From a virus: a DNA stretch of 38,014 nt. Location: the UHGV virus genome UHGV-0042156, one strand, 5' to 3'. Under the pieces are notes generated by a model. It saw nothing but the letters and a program-made list of their open reading frames with translations. It ran no database searches and was not told the DNA's origin. Below are positions 1,711 through 30,528 of this stretch, piece after piece. The position numbers were made by a program, and so were the translations under genes. Each line of letters opens with the position of its first letter. The stretch's first letter is position 1.

Positions 1711-2535
1711 TCATTCACCATCCTGCTCCGGCGGTTCTGGCAGCGGCATCCAGTGGGGTACTTTCGATGCCGGCTCTTCCCCATCGTCAGTAACTGCCCA
1801 CCATTTGTTTCTCGACCAATCGTAATACCCTTCGAAGGTATCGCACTCAGTCCAGCCGTAAGACTTACCCCAACACCAAACATACTGTTTATCGTTCGGC
1901 ATTCGCTCACTACAGCTTATCCAACCATCCGGAGTTACCGGATAGTTGCCACCCTGAACAGTAGGCATATCCGGACCTTTGCGAATCGCCCTGGCAAGAT
2001 CGATTGGGTCGTCGTACAACCAGTCACCTGTTTGCGGATTATTTGCTTCTGCCAATTGTGCAGCCCACTCCAGGCCGTCTTTGTGTCCTTGCAGATAGTC
2101 CAGCGGTAACTCATCACTATTACTTACAGGTTCGGCCTGAAGCATGGCGGCGCGATAGGCGTTCCAGCCGACAGCTTTTCCGTGTTCAAACGCGCTGTCA
2201 AAGTCATCATCAATTTCCATCGCAGCGGGCACAGATACCGGCGCTGGCGGGGCGGTGTAGAGCGGCATTACCTCAATATTGAAGATATCCCCCTCGCTTG
2301 GACACGCCTCTGCGCTACCGTAAACCCAAGGGTGAACGACTCCGTTACGCTTGTTGATTAATCTGTGCGCCCACGCCACAGGCTCCGCTTCGAGCGATGC
2401 CAGCGCGATACGCGCATTATTAATCAGGAGGCTATCAGCAGGAGATAAAACAACATGAGCGTTACCCTCCGCATCAATTTCAGAATTCGTAATTTTTCTG
2501 AACAGCTTTGCCAGTTCTCTGGTAATAGTGCTCAT
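1711..2535 (-). CDS. Phage protein with Trp-rich C-terminal domain (DUF551-like)
   Basis: 274-aa ORF; C-terminal W/C-rich segment (WISCSERMPNDKQYVWCW...HWMPLPEPP); start overlaps upstream stop (ATGA). Confidence 0.8.
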   Translation of the reverse strand: MSTITRELAKLFRKITNSEIDAEGNAHVVLSPADSLLINNARIALASLEAEPVAWAHRLINKRNGVVHPWVYGSAEACPSEGDIFNIEVMPLYTAPPAPVSVPAAMEIDDDFDSAFEHGKAVGWNAYRAAMLQAEPVSNSDELPLDYLQGHKDGLEWAAQLAEANNPQTGDWLYDDPIDLARAIRKGPDMPTVQGGNYPVTPDGWISCSERMPNDKQYVWCWGKSYGWTECDTFEGYYDWSRNKWWAVTDDGEEPASKVPHWMPLPEPPEQDGE

Positions 2536-2810
2536 GGGCGAATCTCCGTCCTGCCACCAAGTAAGCGGATTGCCACTCGTTCCCGGAAGGTAAGCGGTCG
2601 ATGGTGTCCGCGGGCATTAACAATTTCAGGCTTTCCATTAGGCGGATAATTGACCCTGACCGATTGACCATCTAGCGCGTGAGAAGCCTCGAGTAGTGCT
2701 GACTTTAAGTGCGCAGGGCACTCTTTCTGCACCCGCTCGCCGTCTGAAATGACACCTGCAATCCCCTGAAGCATGCTGGCTAAATTGCTGAGATAATTTT
2801 TCACATTCAC
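2532..2810 (-). CDS. Hypothetical early protein
   Basis: 92-aa ORF translationally coupled to neighbours in leftward operon. Confidence 0.6.
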   Translation of the reverse strand: MNVKNYLSNLASMLQGIAGVISDGERVQKECPAHLKSALLEASHALDGQSVRVNYPPNGKPEIVNARGHHRPLTFRERVAIRLLGGRTEIRP

Positions 2811-3151
2811 TCTCCTTTACCGGTGCCATAGGCAGATAAGCACTCTTCAAATCCAGCCTGATTATCCGTTTGACCTAAACTGAAGCCATGCTGAAGACCA
2901 TGACGAAATGCGCTATCTTGCAATTTATCTGCGCTATCGAGCTTCGCTTCCAGTTCAGCGATTCGCTTCTCTGCGGTTTCCAACTCATCCAGCAGCGCCA
3001 CTGAGCGCAGAGCCAATTTCGCAAGCATGTTTGTATCCTTCAAGCTCATCAGCCAATGCCCAGGATTGCTTTTGCAATACTCCATATCAGCTAATTTATT
3101 GAGCCATTCAATTTTTTCTTGATTTAACGCCTGTTTATCGATGTTGCTCAT
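2807..3151 (-). CDS. Hypothetical early protein (coiled-coil)
   Basis: 114-aa ORF, 4-nt overlaps with both neighbours. Confidence 0.65.
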   Translation of the reverse strand: MSNIDKQALNQEKIEWLNKLADMEYCKSNPGHWLMSLKDTNMLAKLALRSVALLDELETAEKRIAELEAKLDSADKLQDSAFRHGLQHGFSLGQTDNQAGFEECLSAYGTGKGE

Positions 3152-3420
3152 TGGGCGGTTCCTTCGTAACCGATGGCTTCTGCAATTTCAGCAAGTGTCT
3201 CTGCACTTTCACCCACTGGCTCATTCATCCAGTCGAAGGAAACAAGCTTACCGCCTTCGATAACGCCGATGTTGAAATCATCACTACCTTGTGTTTTCAG
3301 ACCATGCTTGATTGCCTTATCGCGCTTATCGAAGTCAACGCCGTCTGTCGTGTATTCAACTCCATGGCCTTTCTCGTTGCACCACCAGTACTGCTGAATA
3401 ACGATGTATGATTTTCTCAT
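3148..3420 (-). CDS. Hypothetical early protein
   Basis: 90-aa ORF in operon context. Confidence 0.65.
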   Translation of the reverse strand: MRKSYIVIQQYWWCNEKGHGVEYTTDGVDFDKRDKAIKHGLKTQGSDDFNIGVIEGGKLVSFDWMNEPVGESAETLAEIAEAIGYEGTAQ

Positions 3421-4082
3421 AGCGCGGATCCTTTGCGAATTTGCTCCCTGAACAAGCGGGCTGAGACGATGATGTCTCTGATGCGTACTGATTTTTCGTC
3501 GAACTGCTCACCACCGTTTTTAATATGCGCATCCAGTTCTGCACTGTGATGCTGGATGAAAGCGTTGAGGCACTGCGCCCGCACTTCAGCCATGAAAGCG
3601 TCGGTGGCTGGGGTTTTGTTATCTGACTCCAGCCACTGGTTGTAGTAATAATCGAACATGCCAGTAGGATAACCACATCCGCTGTGCACGTGGTCTTTCA
3701 TAGCAGAACCACACATACAGTAGTCATTGTCAGTATTACTAATGATGTCGATAAGTTGCTGTGTCCGTTGCTTCAACATCGCATTCTCCGCCGCCAGCGC
3801 CGAAAACTTCTCGTGTGCCAACTTAACAGCTGCATCAGCCTGCTTAATTGACTCAGTCGCTTTCTGGTGGTCTTCGGCCAGCCCTGCTAAATCAGCCTCC
3901 AGTTCGGCTAGGCGTTCATTTAATGCATCTCGTTCATCCAGTAGAGCCAGCACAACCTGAGGTGTTACTTTCATACGAAATGCCAGCAATTTTTGAGGCG
4001 TTGCTACTGTTTCAATTGCTACTGCTGCCTCACGCAGTACCTGATAGTCAATCTTGCTCACTGGTTGCCTCCTTTGCGCCAC
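3417..4082 (-). CDS. Ead/Ea22-like coiled-coil protein
   Basis: 221-aa ORF with long coiled-coil ([20 protein letters not shown]...) and Cys/His cluster; typical of the lambdoid early-left region. Confidence 0.65.
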
Positions 4083-14411: not shown

Positions 14412-14828
14412 ATGAAAAAGCTAACCTTTGAAATTCGATCTCCAGCACATCAGCAAAACGCTATTCACGCAGTACAGCAAATCCTTCCAGACCCAACCAA
14501 GCCAATCGTAGTAACCATTCAGGAGCGCAACCGCAGCATTCGGCAAAATGCACGCCTTCACGCGATGCTATCTGAAATAAGTAAGAAGGCTACATATCAT
14601 GGAAAAGTAAGAAATATTGAGTTTTGGAAGGGGTTATTCGTTTCTGGTTGGCAGATTGCAACCAACCAGCACCCTGAGATTATATCAGGGTTAGAAGGTG
14701 AGCTAATAAACATCAGAGAGAGTACGGCGACTCTATCTGTAAAAAAAATATCCGAAATAATGGACTACATAGAAGCATATTGTGCCATGAACTCAATTCA
14801 TCTTAGCGAATGGAGGAATTATGATTGA
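14412..14828 (+). CDS. ninB: NinB recombination protein (3' part divergent)
   Basis: MKKLTFEIRSPAHQQNAIHAVQQILPDPTKPIVVTIQERNRS matches lambda NinB as recalled, then continues in AT-rich divergent sequence to a new C-terminus. Confidence 0.85.
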   Translation: MKKLTFEIRSPAHQQNAIHAVQQILPDPTKPIVVTIQERNRSIRQNARLHAMLSEISKKATYHGKVRNIEFWKGLFVSGWQIATNQHPEIISGLEGELINIRESTATLSVKKISEIMDYIEAYCAMNSIHLSEWRNYD

Positions 14829-15394
14829 GGTTTGGGTAGATATCGAAGGGATTCCATTTTATCAGGTTAGCAATAAAGGAAATTTCAGGTCTATTACGAG
14901 GGAAGTTACAGTAACATCAACCAGACAGAGGCCATATAAGAAAATAATTAATGGCACTAGCGTAAAACCATTCAAGTGCAAGTCGACAGGATATCTTCAA
15001 ATAAAGGTATACGGTAAGAAATACAGCGCCCACAGGATAGTTGCGAAAGCATTCTGTACAGGGTTCTGTGATGGCTTGGTAGTTAATCACAAAAATGGGC
15101 AAAGAGATGACAATAGGGCTGAAAACCTTGAATGGGTATCACATTCTGAAAACTCAAAGCACGGATATAAACAAAATGGAAGAATACCTATATCGCTAGG
15201 TAAATTTAGTGGTGATCATCCTGCCAGTAAAGCTGTTATTTCTACTGACATGAAAACTGGTGAGGAGGTTTATTATGAAGCAGCTATGGATGCTGTCAGA
15301 GAAGGATTTGATAGTTCGTCAATTAGTCGTTGCTGTAATGGCGAAAGCTCATATCACAAAGGAAGATTCTGGCGATTTGCAAATGAAACAATGA
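14530..15394 (+). mobile_element. Putative HNH cassette: divergent ninB 3' segment plus HNH gene
   Basis: AT-rich block beginning where ninB diverges from lambda and ending where lambda-like ninB tail codons (KARWGDRAA) resume, now fused to the HNH ORF. Confidence 0.4.
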
Positions 15395-15423
15395 AAGCGA
15401 GATGGGGAGATCGGGCTGCATGA
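14821..15423 (+). CDS. HNH endonuclease (NUMOD4 plus HNH), C-terminally fused to ninB tail codons
   Basis: GIPFYQVSNKGNFRS (NUMOD4-like), VNHKNGQRDDNRAENLEWVSHSEN (HNH); ends ...[10 protein letters not shown]. Confidence 0.8.
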   Translation: MIEVWVDIEGIPFYQVSNKGNFRSITREVTVTSTRQRPYKKIINGTSVKPFKCKSTGYLQIKVYGKKYSAHRIVAKAFCTGFCDGLVVNHKNGQRDDNRAENLEWVSHSENSKHGYKQNGRIPISLGKFSGDHPASKAVISTDMKTGEEVYYEAAMDAVREGFDSSSISRCCNGESSYHKGRFWRFANETMKARWGDRAA

Positions 15424-16533: not shown

Positions 16534-16702
16534 CCCATCCCAATCCCTTCAATACCAGAAAGAAAGCGTCGAGCGGGCTTTAACGTGCGCTAACTGCGGT
16601 CAGAAGCTGCATGTGCTGGAAGTTCACGTGTGCTCAGATTGCTGCGCAGAACTGATGAGCGATCCGAATAGCTCAATGTACGAGGAAGAAGACGATGAAT
16701 GA
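16526..16702 (+). CDS. ninF: NinF
   Basis: Manual translation [58 protein letters not shown], near-identical to lambda NinF as recalled; below ORF-track size cutoff. Confidence 0.7.
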   Translation: MLSPSQSLQYQKESVERALTCANCGQKLHVLEVHVCSDCCAELMSDPNSSMYEEEDDE

Positions 16703-17204
16703 TGTTAAAGAAAAAGATATCCCCGGCTTTGAGGGTATATATAAAGTAAATGAAAATGGAGACATCATTTCATGCCGTAAATCAAAAAAATTATCTCATG
16801 GCATTAAACCAGGAGGATATGCATTTGTCGGTCTGTATCCAGGTGGCGGGAAAAGACCATCATATAAAATGGTTCACAGAATTGTTGCAGAAGTATTTAT
16901 TGATAACCCAGATGGCAAACCGGAAGTTAATCACAAGGATGGAAATAAACTTAATAATAAAGTTGAAAATCTTGAGTGGGTAACGCGAACAGAAAATGCG
17001 AAACATGGATTTGATTCCGGATTGCTTGTTCATGGGTTTAATCATCACTTCTGCAAACTAACGCCAGAACAAGTGAAATCAATATATAAATCAAAAGGCA
17101 AATACAGAGATATAGCCAAAGAATTTGGTGTTTGTGCGCAGACAGTGTGCAACATAAAAAACAAATCAGCGTACCGACGTTTTTTGGAGGGGATTGATGT
17201 TTAG
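16695..17204 (+). CDS. HNH endonuclease (NUMOD4 plus HNH plus C-terminal HTH)
   Basis: IPGFEGIYKVNENGDIIS, VNHKDGNKLNNKVENLEWVTRTEN, DIAKEFGVCAQTVCNIKN; overlaps ninF stop and next gene start; AT-rich. Confidence 0.8.
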   Translation: MNDVKEKDIPGFEGIYKVNENGDIISCRKSKKLSHGIKPGGYAFVGLYPGGGKRPSYKMVHRIVAEVFIDNPDGKPEVNHKDGNKLNNKVENLEWVTRTENAKHGFDSGLLVHGFNHHFCKLTPEQVKSIYKSKGKYRDIAKEFGVCAQTVCNIKNKSAYRRFLEGIDV

Positions 17205-27796: not shown

Positions 27797-27985
27797 ATGG
27801 CACGAACAATGCTCTATAAGCCGGGCAACATGATCACCTGTGGTCAGTTTGCTGTCGATTACATCATTGTTGATGACGAAGAAGTTAAATCTCACCTGAA
27901 AAAAGGCTGGGTAAAAACTCCTGAAGAAACCGCAACGAAGCATAAAGTGGCTAAGGCGGAAGAAGATGGCGAAAACGAAGGGTGA
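27797..27985 (+). CDS. Small hypothetical protein between coat and gp4 (62 aa)
   Basis: GGGAGAAG SD; ORF-track start 27758 lies in the terminator and is rejected. Confidence 0.5.
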   Translation: MARTMLYKPGNMITCGQFAVDYIIVDDEEVKSHLKKGWVKTPEETATKHKVAKAEEDGENEG

Positions 27986-28427
27986 TCTCGTTCTAAAGGC
28001 TTTACGAAAAGCCGGGCTGTATTCCAATGCCACGTTGACAGATGCTGACCCTCAGGCAATTGAAGATGCCATTAATGACCTCGAAGACATGATGGCAGCA
28101 TGGCAGGCTAAAGGTATCGAGCTTGGGTATCAGTTTGCTGATACAGAAAACGGCATCATGCCGTTACCGGACGATGATTCAGGTATCCCTGCATGGGCAA
28201 ATGATGGCGTCGCTTTGAAACTCGCTGTGCAAGTGTGCATGGATAACGTCATTCAGCCGTCAGACGCTCTCCTTACCGCTGCTGACAGTGCATATCAGAC
28301 AATCTGCATCGCTTTAACCAAAATACCACCACTTGAGCGGCGAAATGACATGCCTCGCGGTAGTGGTAACAAAAGCGCGTTTACGTGGAATCGGTTTTAC
28401 ATCGAGAAAGATGATCCGAGTACGTGA
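27966..28427 (+). CDS. Head completion protein (P22 gp4-like)
   Basis: 153 aa; KTKGDLV...ATLTD...DLE.MMA resemble P22 gp4. Confidence 0.8.
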   Translation: MAKTKGDLVLKALRKAGLYSNATLTDADPQAIEDAINDLEDMMAAWQAKGIELGYQFADTENGIMPLPDDDSGIPAWANDGVALKLAVQVCMDNVIQPSDALLTAADSAYQTICIALTKIPPLERRNDMPRGSGNKSAFTWNRFYIEKDDPST

Positions 28428-28436
28428 GGTGAATAA

Positions 28437-28541
28437 ATGCCGATTCAGCAACTTCCGCTTATGAAAGGTGTCGGCAAAGACTTTCGAAACGCCGACTATA
28501 TCGACTATCTGCCAGTGAATATGTTGGCAATTTTGATATAA
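28437..28541 (+). pseudogene. Truncated original 5' end of gene 10 (31 native codons, then stop)
   Basis: [31 protein letters not shown] matches P22 gp10 N-terminus, then runs into ILI-stop at the insertion point. Confidence 0.65.
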
Positions 28542-29202
28542 TAAGTACATGAAAAATCGAAACTTTAAGGAGTAGATATGCTTTCTGAGAATGCTAAAGA
28601 TATACCTGGATTTGAAGGTGTTTATGCCGTAACAGAAGATGGCAGGGTGCATTCTCACTCACGTGTTGTTAAGGCTGCGCATGGCAGCACGCAACTCAGA
28701 AAGGGGCGCTGGTTAAAGCCTAAAATAAATCAGGGAAGGGTGCTTTATAATATCGGAGCAAAATGGACTTTTGCCCATCGAATCGTTGCAATGACATTCC
28801 TGCCAAATCCTGAAAACAAGCCTCAGGTAAATCATATTGATGGCAATCCACTCAATAATAACGTCAATAATCTTGAGTGGTGCACTCAAAGCGAAAACAT
28901 CAAACATGCATACGCCACAGGATTAAAGAAACCAATCAAGTTTTTCGGAACCAAGCACCCAAAACACAAGTTGAGTGATGACGATGTTCTTGCAATCAAG
29001 TCATCAAAAGAAAGCTTGTCAGTAATTGCGGCTAAGTACGGGATATCTAAGACCTGGGCAAGTAGGCTAAAGCGTGATGCTAACTGGGTTCATATAAAGG
29101 TTGATTCCAATGGCAATACAACAACTACCACTAATGAAGGGATTAGGGAAAAGTGCGGTTAATGCTGATTATATAGACCAACTTCCAGTCAATCTTTTAG
29201 CT
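28530..29202 (+). mobile_element. HNH endonuclease cassette inserted in gene 10, carrying a divergent copy of gene-10 codons 1-31
   Basis: 93-bp segment 29110..29202 encodes the same 31 residues as 28437..28529 with different, AT-rich codons; HNH gene lies between the two copies. Confidence 0.55.
28578..29162 (+). CDS. HNH endonuclease (NUMOD4 plus HNH plus C-terminal HTH)
   Basis: IPGFEGVYAVTEDGRVHS, VNHIDGNPLNNNVNNLEWCTQSEN, VIAAKYGISKTWASRLKR; 3' end overlaps restored gene-10 start. Confidence 0.8.
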   Translation: MLSENAKDIPGFEGVYAVTEDGRVHSHSRVVKAAHGSTQLRKGRWLKPKINQGRVLYNIGAKWTFAHRIVAMTFLPNPENKPQVNHIDGNPLNNNVNNLEWCTQSENIKHAYATGLKKPIKFFGTKHPKHKLSDDDVLAIKSSKESLSVIAAKYGISKTWASRLKRDANWVHIKVDSNGNTTTTTNEGIREKCG

Positions 29203-30528
29203 ACGCCCAAGGAGGTGTTGAATTCATCGGGATATCTTCGCTCATTTCCGGGCATTGCCAAACGCTCTGATGTGAACGGCGTATCTCGCGGAGTCGAGTA
29301 CAACATGGCGCAGAATGCTGTTTATCGCGTGTGTGGTGGCAAACTGTACAAAGGAGAAAGTGAAGTCGGTGACGTCGCCGGAAGTGGTCGCGTATCAATG
29401 GCGCATGGTCGGACATCTCAGGCTGTAGGCGTTAATGGTCAACTGGTCGAGTATCGCTATGATGGCACGGTTAAAACCGTCTCAAACTGGCCTACAGACA
29501 GCGGATTCACGCAGTATGAGTTAGGTTCGGTTCGTGACATTACTCGCTTACGTGGGCGTTATGCGTGGTCAAAAGACGGTACTGATTCATGGTTCATCAC
29601 TGACCCTGAAGACGAATCGCATCCTGACCGCTACAGTGCACAATATCGTGCAGAATCGCAGCCGGACGGCATCATCGGCATCGGAACATGGCGAGACTTC
29701 ATCGTCTGCTTTGGTTCATCGACGATTGAATATTTCTCCCTGACTGGTGCAACCACCGTTGGTGCTGCTTTGTATGTCGCACAGCCATCGTTGATGGTGC
29801 AGAAAGGCATTGCAGGAACCTACTGCAAAACGCAGTTTTCTGATTCGTATGCGTTCATCAGCAATCCGGCAACAGGTGCGCCGTCTGTTTACATCATCGG
29901 ATCCGGTCAGGTGTCACCAATCGCCAGCGCGAGCATTGAGAAAATCCTCCGCTCCTACACCGCGGATGAACTGGCTGATGGCGTGATGGAGTCTCTGCGA
30001 TTTGATGCGCATGAACTGCTGATTATCCATCTTCCGCGCCATGTCCTCGTGTACGACGCATCTTCAAGCGCCAATGGTCCGCAATGGTGCGTACTGAAAA
30101 CAGGACTGTATGACGATGTGTACCGCGCTATCGACTTCATTTACGAAGGCAATCAGATAACGTGCGGCGATAAGCTGGAATCCGTGACCGGGAAATTGCA
30201 GTTCGATATCAGCAGCCAGTACGACAAGCAGCAGGAACACCTGCTGTTTACTCCGTTGTTCAAAGCGGATAACGCCAGAGTGTTCGACCTTGAGGTTGAG
30301 TCGTCAACTGGCGTTGCGCAGTATGCTGACCGCCTGTTCCTCTCTGCAACCACTGACGGCATCAATTACGGACGTGAGCAGATGATTGAGCAGAATGAAC
30401 CGTTCGTTTACGACAAACGCGTTTTGTGGAAGCGAGTCGGGCGCATCAGGAAAAATGTCGGCTTCAAATTGCGCGTTATCACGAAGTCACCTGTCACTCT
30501 TTCTGGCTGCCAGATAAGGATTGAGTAA
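29110..30528 (+). CDS. Tail hub protein (P22 gp10-like), restored full-length copy
   Basis: [49 protein letters not shown]... colinear with P22 gp10 (ORF-track start 29101). Confidence 0.85.

Follow-up and report, generated by a model that had tools for sequence, protein, structure and literature searches.

Homing endonuclease genes usually spare the organisms that host them: they lie between genes, are housed in self-splicing introns or inteins or, rarely, split a gene that reassembles. Here, we analyzed a locus of the UHGV virus genome UHGV-0042156 (38,014 nucleotides (nt); this whole stretch is called the window) at which a gene for an HNH endonuclease sits inside gene 10 of a P22-like prophage, the gene for the head closure or packaged-DNA stabilisation protein gp10. 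Upstream of the endonuclease gene, the native start of gene 10 is left as a short stump, and a second, diverged version of the start overlaps the end of the endonuclease gene and is joined to the remainder of gene 10. We consider it probable that this is a free-standing homing cassette of the I-HmuI type, with neither intron nor intein, which resides inside an essential gene and carries a replacement for the 5' end of that gene.

Enzymes of the I-HmuI type bind long asymmetric sites that span the insertion point, and they nick one strand nearby. The phage enzymes of this class, for which I-HmuI is given as an example, make extended multi-domain contacts with targets of up to 30 bp (PMC3943268). 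I-HmuI, I-HmuII, I-BasI and I-TwoI share with the window's enzyme a NUMOD4 beta domain, a His/Asn/Asn HNH motif and a C-terminal helix-turn-helix. However, the members of the I-HmuI group reside within self-splicing group I introns of Bacillus and Staphylococcus phages, and the interrupted gene is restored at the RNA level, whereas the gene 10 cassette has no intron and restores the gene in the DNA itself, through the 5' end that it carries. More generally, phage endonuclease genes inside coding genes have been found to be borne by introns or inteins or to split the gene (PMC2988022). The free-standing Seg and Mob endonucleases of T4-like phages resemble the cassette in that they occur sporadically, target a conserved neighbouring gene and are copied by repair together with protective flanking polymorphisms; they differ in that they lie between genes, or split a gene into polypeptides that reassemble, as in Aeh1 nrdA/mobE and T4 gene 39/60/mobA (PMC2988022). 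None of the T4-type elements has been described as carrying a replacement gene end with the native stump left in place.

The design of the cassette is shared with mobile open reading frame (mORF) elements of fungal mitochondria (Allomyces macrogynus atp6; Glomus atp6, atp9, cox2 and nad3), in which an endonuclease open reading frame (ORF) travels with a foreign gene terminus. In these elements the hybrid gene is expressed, the displaced native terminus persists next to it, and the two copies are 64-81% identical in DNA and similar in protein (PMC3630166, in which the Allomyces atp6 case is also cited); the two copies in the window are 65% identical in nucleotides and 77% in amino acids (aa). 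The geometry is mirrored: mORF elements replace the 3' end and leave the remnant downstream, whereas the cassette replaces the 5' end, leaves the remnant upstream and brings its own start codon and ribosome-binding site. Because it is the 5' end that is replaced, the cassette must also supply the start signals. The enzymes differ as well (LAGLIDADG or GIY-YIG in mORF elements, HNH in the cassette), as do the hosts, an organelle genome versus a temperate phage, and the mORF ORFs are often fused in frame, whereas those of the cassette are separate and overlapping. The resemblance is one of design, not of homology. Literature searches yielded no phage endonuclease that carries a replacement gene end and no description of the gene 10 cassette.

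In the window, all features described below lie on the plus strand. The native gene 10 begins with its own ribosome-binding site and ATG, and after codon 31 (codons 1-31, 28437-28529) it runs into ILI and a stop codon contributed by the cassette, leaving a stump of 34 codons (28437..28541). The HNH gene follows (28578..29162, 194 aa), preceded by the Shine-Dalgarno sequence AAGGAG (28567..28572), which lies inside a conserved leader AATCGAAAC..GGAGTAGAT. The 3' end of the HNH gene is overlapped over 53 nt by the new gp10 start, whose ATG at 29110 has a Shine-Dalgarno-like AAAGG 9 nt upstream (29096-29100). From this ATG the hybrid gene 10 extends to 30528 (29110..30528, 472 aa). A first-pass annotation, which had been made from the window's letters alone, had placed the split after codon 31, the ILI stop, the HNH gene and the overlapping second copy at these very positions, and it had also claimed that the second copy joins the rest of gene 10 in frame; both held, and the product is a complete gp10 of 472 aa. 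It covers positions 1-469 of the 469 positions of Pfam family PF11134 (E 3.9e-297), and its residues 1-472 were matched by PDB entries 7sg7 and 8tvr. The stump protein matched PHROG 578 (head closure, E 1.4e-8). The region is a prophage of E. coli MS 115-1 (finished chromosome, 100% identity), where the stump has already been marked as a pseudogene of a 'packaged DNA stabilization protein' by RefSeq PGAP ('incomplete, missing C-terminus'), with the HNH endonuclease and gp10 next to it.

Two familiar arrangements were rejected. A gene in pieces does not fit, as the downstream ORF alone accounts for the full family and for all residues of the known structures, and the stump is redundant. A group I intron or an intein does not fit either: Rfam yielded no relevant family and no intron match at E <= 1, the stump ends in a stop codon, the HNH gene is read in a different frame from gp10 and starts from a Shine-Dalgarno sequence and an ATG of its own, and gp10 likewise has an ATG of its own.

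Uninterrupted versions of gene 10 were found, as the first-pass annotation had anticipated, in HNH-less relatives including Sf101, CUS-3, P22 and many others. Save for the junction base (nt 93), the stump equals the 5' end of gene 10 in Sf101 and CUS-3. The junction lies after nt 92/93 of gene 10. In the naive allele AATATGTTGGC is directly followed by TACACCCAAAGAA (TTGGC/TACACC), whereas in the window AATATGTTGGC is followed by AATTTTGATATAA (TTGGC/AATTTTG), and behind the HNH gene CTTTTAGC is followed by TACGCCCAAGGAG (TTAGC/TACGCC). The P22 genes 4 and 10 overlap by 41 nt at the start of gene 10, so that there is no intergenic space into which an endonuclease gene could be inserted harmlessly.

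The two 93-nt copies (28437..28529 and 29110..29202) proved to be homologous, as had been proposed: they align in frame and without gaps, 60 of 93 nt and 24 of 31 aa are identical, and in a tblastn comparison the stump matched the second copy at E = 8e-14. As background, the remaining 93-mers of both strands of the window had a mean of 23.3 identities with a standard deviation of 4.4 and a maximum of 44. The longest identical run between the two copies is 5 nt. The first-pass annotation had described the diverged copy as 31 codons long. These codons are diverged, but the recoding does not end there and runs on to codon 40 (window 29229), such that the cassette-borne replacement comprises codons 1-40 (29110..29229), of which 29203-29229 take the place of native codons 32-40. 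Compared with naive alleles, 33 of the first 93 nt of the new copy are changed, and so are 9 nt within nt 94-120. In codons 32-40, 7 of the 8 codons that can change synonymously differ from Sf101, and Ile36 has become Val; in the remainder of gene 10 about 20% of the codons differ from Sf101.

A direct repeat flanking an insert would look alike if the 5' end of gene 10 had been duplicated in tandem on the spot, the HNH gene had landed later and the downstream copy had diverged in place. We regard this history as very improbable. The stump equals naive alleles, and all of the differences at the 33 positions are in the downstream copy. The heavy synonymous change continues through codons 32-40, which were never duplicated. 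In addition, the GC content at third codon positions (GC3) of new codons 1-40 is 0.35, which is like that of the HNH gene (0.39) and unlike that of the rest of gene 10 (0.56).

The HNH protein was recognised by Pfam at curated cut-offs as HNH_3 (E 8.7e-11, 41.7 bits, cut-off 24.8) and NUMOD4 (E 3.3e-8, 34.1 bits, cut-off 23.4). Among structures, I-HmuI (PDB 1u3e) was the only one matched significantly by sequence, over residues 7-116 (E 4.6e-8, identity about 25%). An AlphaFold model with a predicted local distance difference test (pLDDT) value of 87.6 revealed an N-terminal beta domain (NUMOD4, residues 1-65), the HNH beta-beta-alpha fold (66-114), a linker and a three-helix helix-turn-helix (134-165). 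In a Foldseek search with this model, 1u3e was the sole significant match (E 4.4e-6 over 178 columns), and no other was below 0.1. In an alignment of 44 homologues the catalytic H86 and the metal-binding N98 and N107 are invariant, and they align with the HNH region of I-HmuI. From about residue 175 to residue 194 the model has a disordered tail, and it is this tail that the stretch shared with the new gp10 start encodes; therefore, the overlap costs the enzyme nothing. By its similarity to I-HmuI, the window's enzyme would be expected to nick or cleave gene 10 site-specifically, and we assume from the intact ORF and motifs that this copy is currently active.

The cassette was present in 18 of the 910 complete E. 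coli genomes that match the gene 4/gene 10 region (about 2%), including MS 115-1, in 28 IMG/VR contigs, in 8 metagenome contigs and in the isolated Salmonella phage UPF_BP1; these sets partly overlap, UPF_BP1 for example being contained in IMG/VR as well. Stump, HNH gene and full gp10 with identical spacing were found at 27 of 27 dissected IMG/VR loci and at 8 of 8 metagenome loci, and in the 28th IMG/VR contig the entire region runs colinear with the window. In all carriers gp10 is intact. The first-pass annotation had named an assembly artefact as one finding that would undo it, and a false duplication could in principle arise during sequencing or assembly. As the arrangement recurs in 18 finished E. 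coli genomes, in an isolated phage and in 36 viral or metagenomic contigs from independent projects, with natural polymorphism, we regard such an origin as next to impossible.

The backgrounds of the cassette are diverse: the neighbouring proteins of the carriers vary in aa identity from 40 to 100% for gp4, from 26 to 100% for gp5 and from 53 to 100% for gp26. For quantification, nucleotide diversity (pi) was computed among 27 carriers, and divergence (dxy) was computed against HNH-less alleles. The leader plus HNH gene (580 nt), a region not present in HNH-less genomes, had a pi of 0.0053, and nt 1-120 of the new gp10 start had a pi of 0.003-0.010 at a dxy of 0.36-0.39. Leader, HNH gene and recoded codons 1-40 together form a near-invariant unit of 700 bp (28530..29229), which includes the net insertion of 673 nt (28530-29202). 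Its edges are sharp. In the flanks pi is 0.04-0.07, and dxy equals pi right up to the edges of the cassette: the stump has a pi of 0.041 (HNH-less 5' ends 0.055) and a dxy of 0.056, and gene 10 from nt 121 onward has a pi of about 0.06 with a dxy about equal to it. Thus, a nearly clonal cassette occupies the same site in diverse P22-like backgrounds. A further argument against a duplication that diverged in place is the near-invariance of the new gene start among carriers whose flanks vary.

The stumps themselves are not uniform. Among the 27 loci 18 distinct stump sequences were found; 20 of the 26 variants are common to functional HNH-less alleles and 21 of 26 are synonymous. The variants were therefore inherited from working genes and do not reflect the decay of a pseudogene. 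For the same reason, purifying selection on the stump was rejected as an explanation of the mostly synonymous variation.

P22-like phages are notoriously mosaic. The cassette could therefore be a passive passenger that arose by one illegitimate recombination event and was then shuffled by ordinary homologous recombination, its HNH enzyme not targeting gene 10 and its spread possibly being aided by selection on the linked gp10 N-terminus or by another role of the HNH protein. The free recombination of the flanks, with dxy equal to pi to the cassette edges, would agree with this explanation, as would the inactivation of some HNH copies described below. It does not readily account for a near-identical block of 700 bp in many unrelated backgrounds at a frequency of 2%, nor for the fact that the characterised members of the enzyme family are homing enzymes. 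Together with the three lines of evidence that follow below, this leads us to consider a passive origin rather unlikely.

The first of these is phage UPF_BP1 (NC_047875 / KX776161; locus L001), for which the literature that we found only cites the phage. Its cassette is 98.8% identical to that of the window. To the left of the cassette, 896 nt of UPF_BP1 match P22 with 100.0% identity, and nt 93 of the stump (93/93) is exactly where this match stops. To the right, gene 10 has window-type alleles at the informative sites from nt 1 to about nt 267, 18 consecutive informative sites of P22 type at nt 294-583, and non-P22 alleles again from nt 609. The P22-type patch at nt 294-583 could be due to a patchy conversion tract or to a second exchange. 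The whole pattern is as would be expected if a P22 genome had suffered a break close to nt 93 of gene 10 and a phage with the cassette had served as the repair template: the left side shows no conversion, and the tract on the right is long and possibly patchy. So exact a left breakpoint relative to P22 speaks against mere passive shuffling. In the database records, gp10 of UPF_BP1 is annotated from an internal Met (locus position 2283). The real start is at 2175 (gene 2175-3593) and overlaps the HNH gene, so that the annotated start is 108 nt too late, and the stump (locus 1502-1606) is unannotated. Because gp10 is required for the completion of P22 virions and UPF_BP1 is an isolated phage with the hybrid gene 10, the hybrid gene should be functional.

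The second line of evidence comes from older lineages with the same design. A protein search retrieved HNH relatives that are 83, 81, 71 and 68% identical to the window's protein (loci L173, L167, L168 and L169-172, respectively). The contigs of these four lineages comprise P22-like late regions with the HNH gene between gene 4 and gene 10, and the layout is that of the window: a stump, the motif TGnTATAAT, the leader, the HNH gene and a distinct cassette-borne gp10 start that overlaps the 3' end of the HNH gene. The stumps are of the local gene 10 type, for example MPKIQVPISRGLSKDFRTADYVDSLPVNML followed by a stop, or MPTTQLPLSKGLGKDYRNADYVDLLPVNMLA followed by L and a stop. They end at the same codon, ...LPVNML(A), except in L168, where the stump stops earlier and is visibly decayed. 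Between stump and new copy, 53-65% of the nucleotides are identical across the lineages, with identical runs of at most 8 nt. A candidate ancestral arrangement, in which an HNH gene lies between gene 4 and gene 10 and the stump is missing, was not found among the five lineages, which comprise more than 50 loci. For the L169 lineage, whose stump is presumably of the local type too, no HNH-less relative above 70% was found in the phage collection.

The cassette-borne 5' ends diverge along with their HNH genes. The closest pair, the window and L167, is 82% identical over 120 nt with HNH proteins that are 81% identical, and pairs with L169, whose HNH protein is 68% identical to that of the window, are 62-71% identical over 120 nt; all five ends terminate in TPKEVLN(A/S). 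This joint divergence is not what a duplication in situ would produce. For a passive passenger, it is difficult to see why the architecture was kept through HNH identities of 68-83% with stumps that still resemble intact local genes, since a passive pseudogene should decay. In light of the clonal cassette in many backgrounds, the left edge in UPF_BP1 and the older lineages, there is strong support for the claim of the first-pass annotation that endonuclease-mediated insertion left this repeat as its footprint. Its implication of a single event had to be modified: the insertion is real, but what it belongs to is a family of elements.

Thirdly, the cassette copies share a recurrent non-synonymous change. 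In 5 of 5 cassette copies Met29 is replaced (L, L, C, L, L) and Leu30 is encoded by TTA, whereas ATG(Met29)-YTG is kept in every native allele and in every stump that reaches this position. The restriction of this change to cassette copies points to nt 85-90 as part of a putative recognition or cleavage site. It has no obvious place in the history of a passive passenger.

Stages of decay and loss were also observed. In E. coli ES5 (L005, 1652-2235) the HNH gene is split into two ORFs, and in the metagenome contig L212 (344-2884) it is interrupted by a 1.9-kb element of the IS21 family (IstA/IstB); gp10 is intact in both. E. coli AVS0578 (L174, NZ_CP124374, 1450-1570) contains an HNH-less chimeric gene 10, which is native up to nt 58 and of the cassette type from about nt 59 to nt 120, the switch point lying in a common GA/TATAT patch. 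This chimera is the product that would be expected from a rare recombination between the diverged repeats, by which the HNH gene was lost and the recoded target was kept, and it may represent a cleavage-resistant allele. Homing endonuclease genes pass through a cycle of invasion, decay and loss. The frequency of about 2%, the decayed copies and the chimera match this life cycle.

Taken together, we propose the following course of events for a homing cassette. In a naive gene 10, the HNH enzyme would introduce a nick or a cut close to the insertion point, at about nt 70-120, and the break would be repaired from an HNH-containing genome. In this repair, the left homology arm would be formed by nt 1-93 of the recipient paired with the 93-bp stump of the donor, and the right arm by the part of gene 10 that starts at about codon 41 (about nt 121). 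As both arms lie within gene 10, transfer would be independent of the highly mosaic gene 4. The first 31 codons of the recipient would be left behind as a dead stump of 34 codons, and the 5' end carried by the cassette would be joined to codons 41-472 of the recipient, such that gp10 would still be made, translated from the ATG at 29110. An HNH-containing genome would present no target, as its stump lacks the right half-site and its new copy is recoded throughout; the target segment would then be immune to cleavage, as the first-pass annotation had suggested. Moreover, after the recoding the repeats have at most 5 identical nt in a row, which would suppress deletion of the cassette by recombination between them. 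It is from the evidence above that we infer the cassette's own enzyme to be the driver of its spread.

Several results weigh against this explanation. Some carriers have an inactivated HNH gene, as described above. A gradient of co-conversion to the right of the cassette was absent at the population level beyond nt 120, where the edges are sharp; this fits very short tracts or later recombination, unlike a classic decaying tract. The low diversity of the cassette could also reflect recent selection or hitch-hiking together with ordinary phage recombination. Furthermore, no lineage was identified as the donor of the recoded 5' end. Distant blastn searches against phages and tblastn searches with the new N-terminus retrieved no HNH-less gene 10 with a cassette-type 5' end, a scan of genome contigs yielded only distant HNH genes in unrelated bacteria, and a scan of metagenomes yielded only identical cassettes and the HNH family of the gene 10/26 site. 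Salmonella phage NM-3 has the best natural N-terminus (85% aa identity) and was ruled out as the donor. Finally, no RNA structure of note was found, and a -35/-10 consensus scan of 28300-29400 called no promoter, not even the putative one at the left end of the cassette.

This putative promoter, TGaTATAAT (28534..28542), is an extended -10-like element that is conserved in 5 of 5 cassette lineages and that the related HNH genes at the gene 10/26 site lack. Judged by its sequence, it may give the cassette a promoter of its own. Its conservation at the left end of the cassette in five lineages would suit a different function, in which the HNH enzyme is a weapon of competition or defence: expressed from a prophage, it would cut gene 10 of superinfecting or co-infecting HNH-less relatives, and homing would be a by-product. 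The element indeed resides in prophages, and there is a precedent for an HNH homing endonuclease in competition between phages (PMC11620839). However, the putative promoter was not called by the scan, and a frequency of about 2% with decayed copies is expected of a selfish element and not of a selected weapon. As the primary explanation of the locus, we consider this function quite unlikely, although it is compatible with a homing cassette and the two are not exclusive.

A bolder proposal, to which we give clearly less than an even chance, is that the duplication is an adaptation of the element and not a scar, that it represents a general third way for a phage homing endonuclease to reside inside an essential gene, besides introns or inteins and gene splitting, and that the enzyme is possibly expressed from prophages, through the cassette's own putative promoter, to attack superinfecting relatives. 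If this were true, the adaptation would keep gp10 functional, make both copies uncuttable and remove deletion-prone homology. At each homing event the recipient's own 5' end would become a fresh left arm, which would allow the cassette to cross between phages with unrelated gene 4.

The upstream neighbour of the stump is the gene 4 homologue (27966..28427), which encodes the head-tail adaptor (P22_Tail-4, Pfam PF11650, E 7e-41). An inverted repeat of the naive target, TGCCA...TGGCA, sits exactly at the insertion point; in the window it reads TGCCAGTG-AATA-TGTTGGCA and is followed by ATTTT of the cassette, with which it forms a weak terminator-like hairpin (28510..28534). Neither the leader nor the new gp10 start was predicted to fold into a more stable RNA than shuffled sequences do.

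Two more I-HmuI-like HNH ORFs are present in the window, at 14821-15423 (+, 200 aa) and at 16695-17204 (+, 169 aa), so that the prophage contains three free-standing HNH genes in total. They are about 39-40% identical to the gene 10 HNH and lie in the nin/early-right region beside NinB-like and DNA-methylase-like ORFs; a duplicated flanking gene end was looked for at both and was not found. In other P22-like phages, related HNH genes (54% and 42% aa identity) are situated at the junction of genes 10 and 26 and overlap the start of gene 26. They were found in phage HZ41 (L006, 2524-3069), at L034-L045, L054-L058 and L213-L217, and also at L027, L029, L030 and L210, and some phages carry both such a gene and the gene 10 cassette. 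In contrast to the cassette, these genes occupy a true intergenic site and have no duplicated gene end. In their carriers the 3' end of gene 10 is of a distinct, divergent type (dxy 0.24-0.41 over nt 1081-1419), and this segment may represent the linked target or immunity region of the gene 10/26 enzyme. The HZ41 gene (L006, 2501-2663) is 86% identical in DNA to window positions 28554-28717, a similarity that covers just the leader plus 48 codons at the start of the gene, which encode the NUMOD4 part; the remainder is far more diverged, and overall the proteins are 54% identical. This suggests that modules may have been exchanged by recombination between endonuclease genes with different targets.

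We rate the gene 10 cassette as interesting and testable, but not as a new principle. A replacement-end design was found in the literature only for the mobile ORFs of fungal mitochondria, where 3' ends are replaced (PMC3630166). In phages, a cassette that brings along the replacement for the gene end that it displaces would be a fourth solution to the problem of sparing the host gene. It would also be a compact and tractable one, UPF_BP1 being essentially P22 plus the cassette on the left side. P22 is a classic genetic model. The system would be of use for the study of intronless homing into an essential structural gene, of the encoding of target immunity and of the way in which endonucleases give rise to the sharp mosaic boundaries of lambdoid and P22-like phages. 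For the annotation of phage genomes, short 'pseudogene' stumps beside HNH genes may mark similar elements elsewhere.

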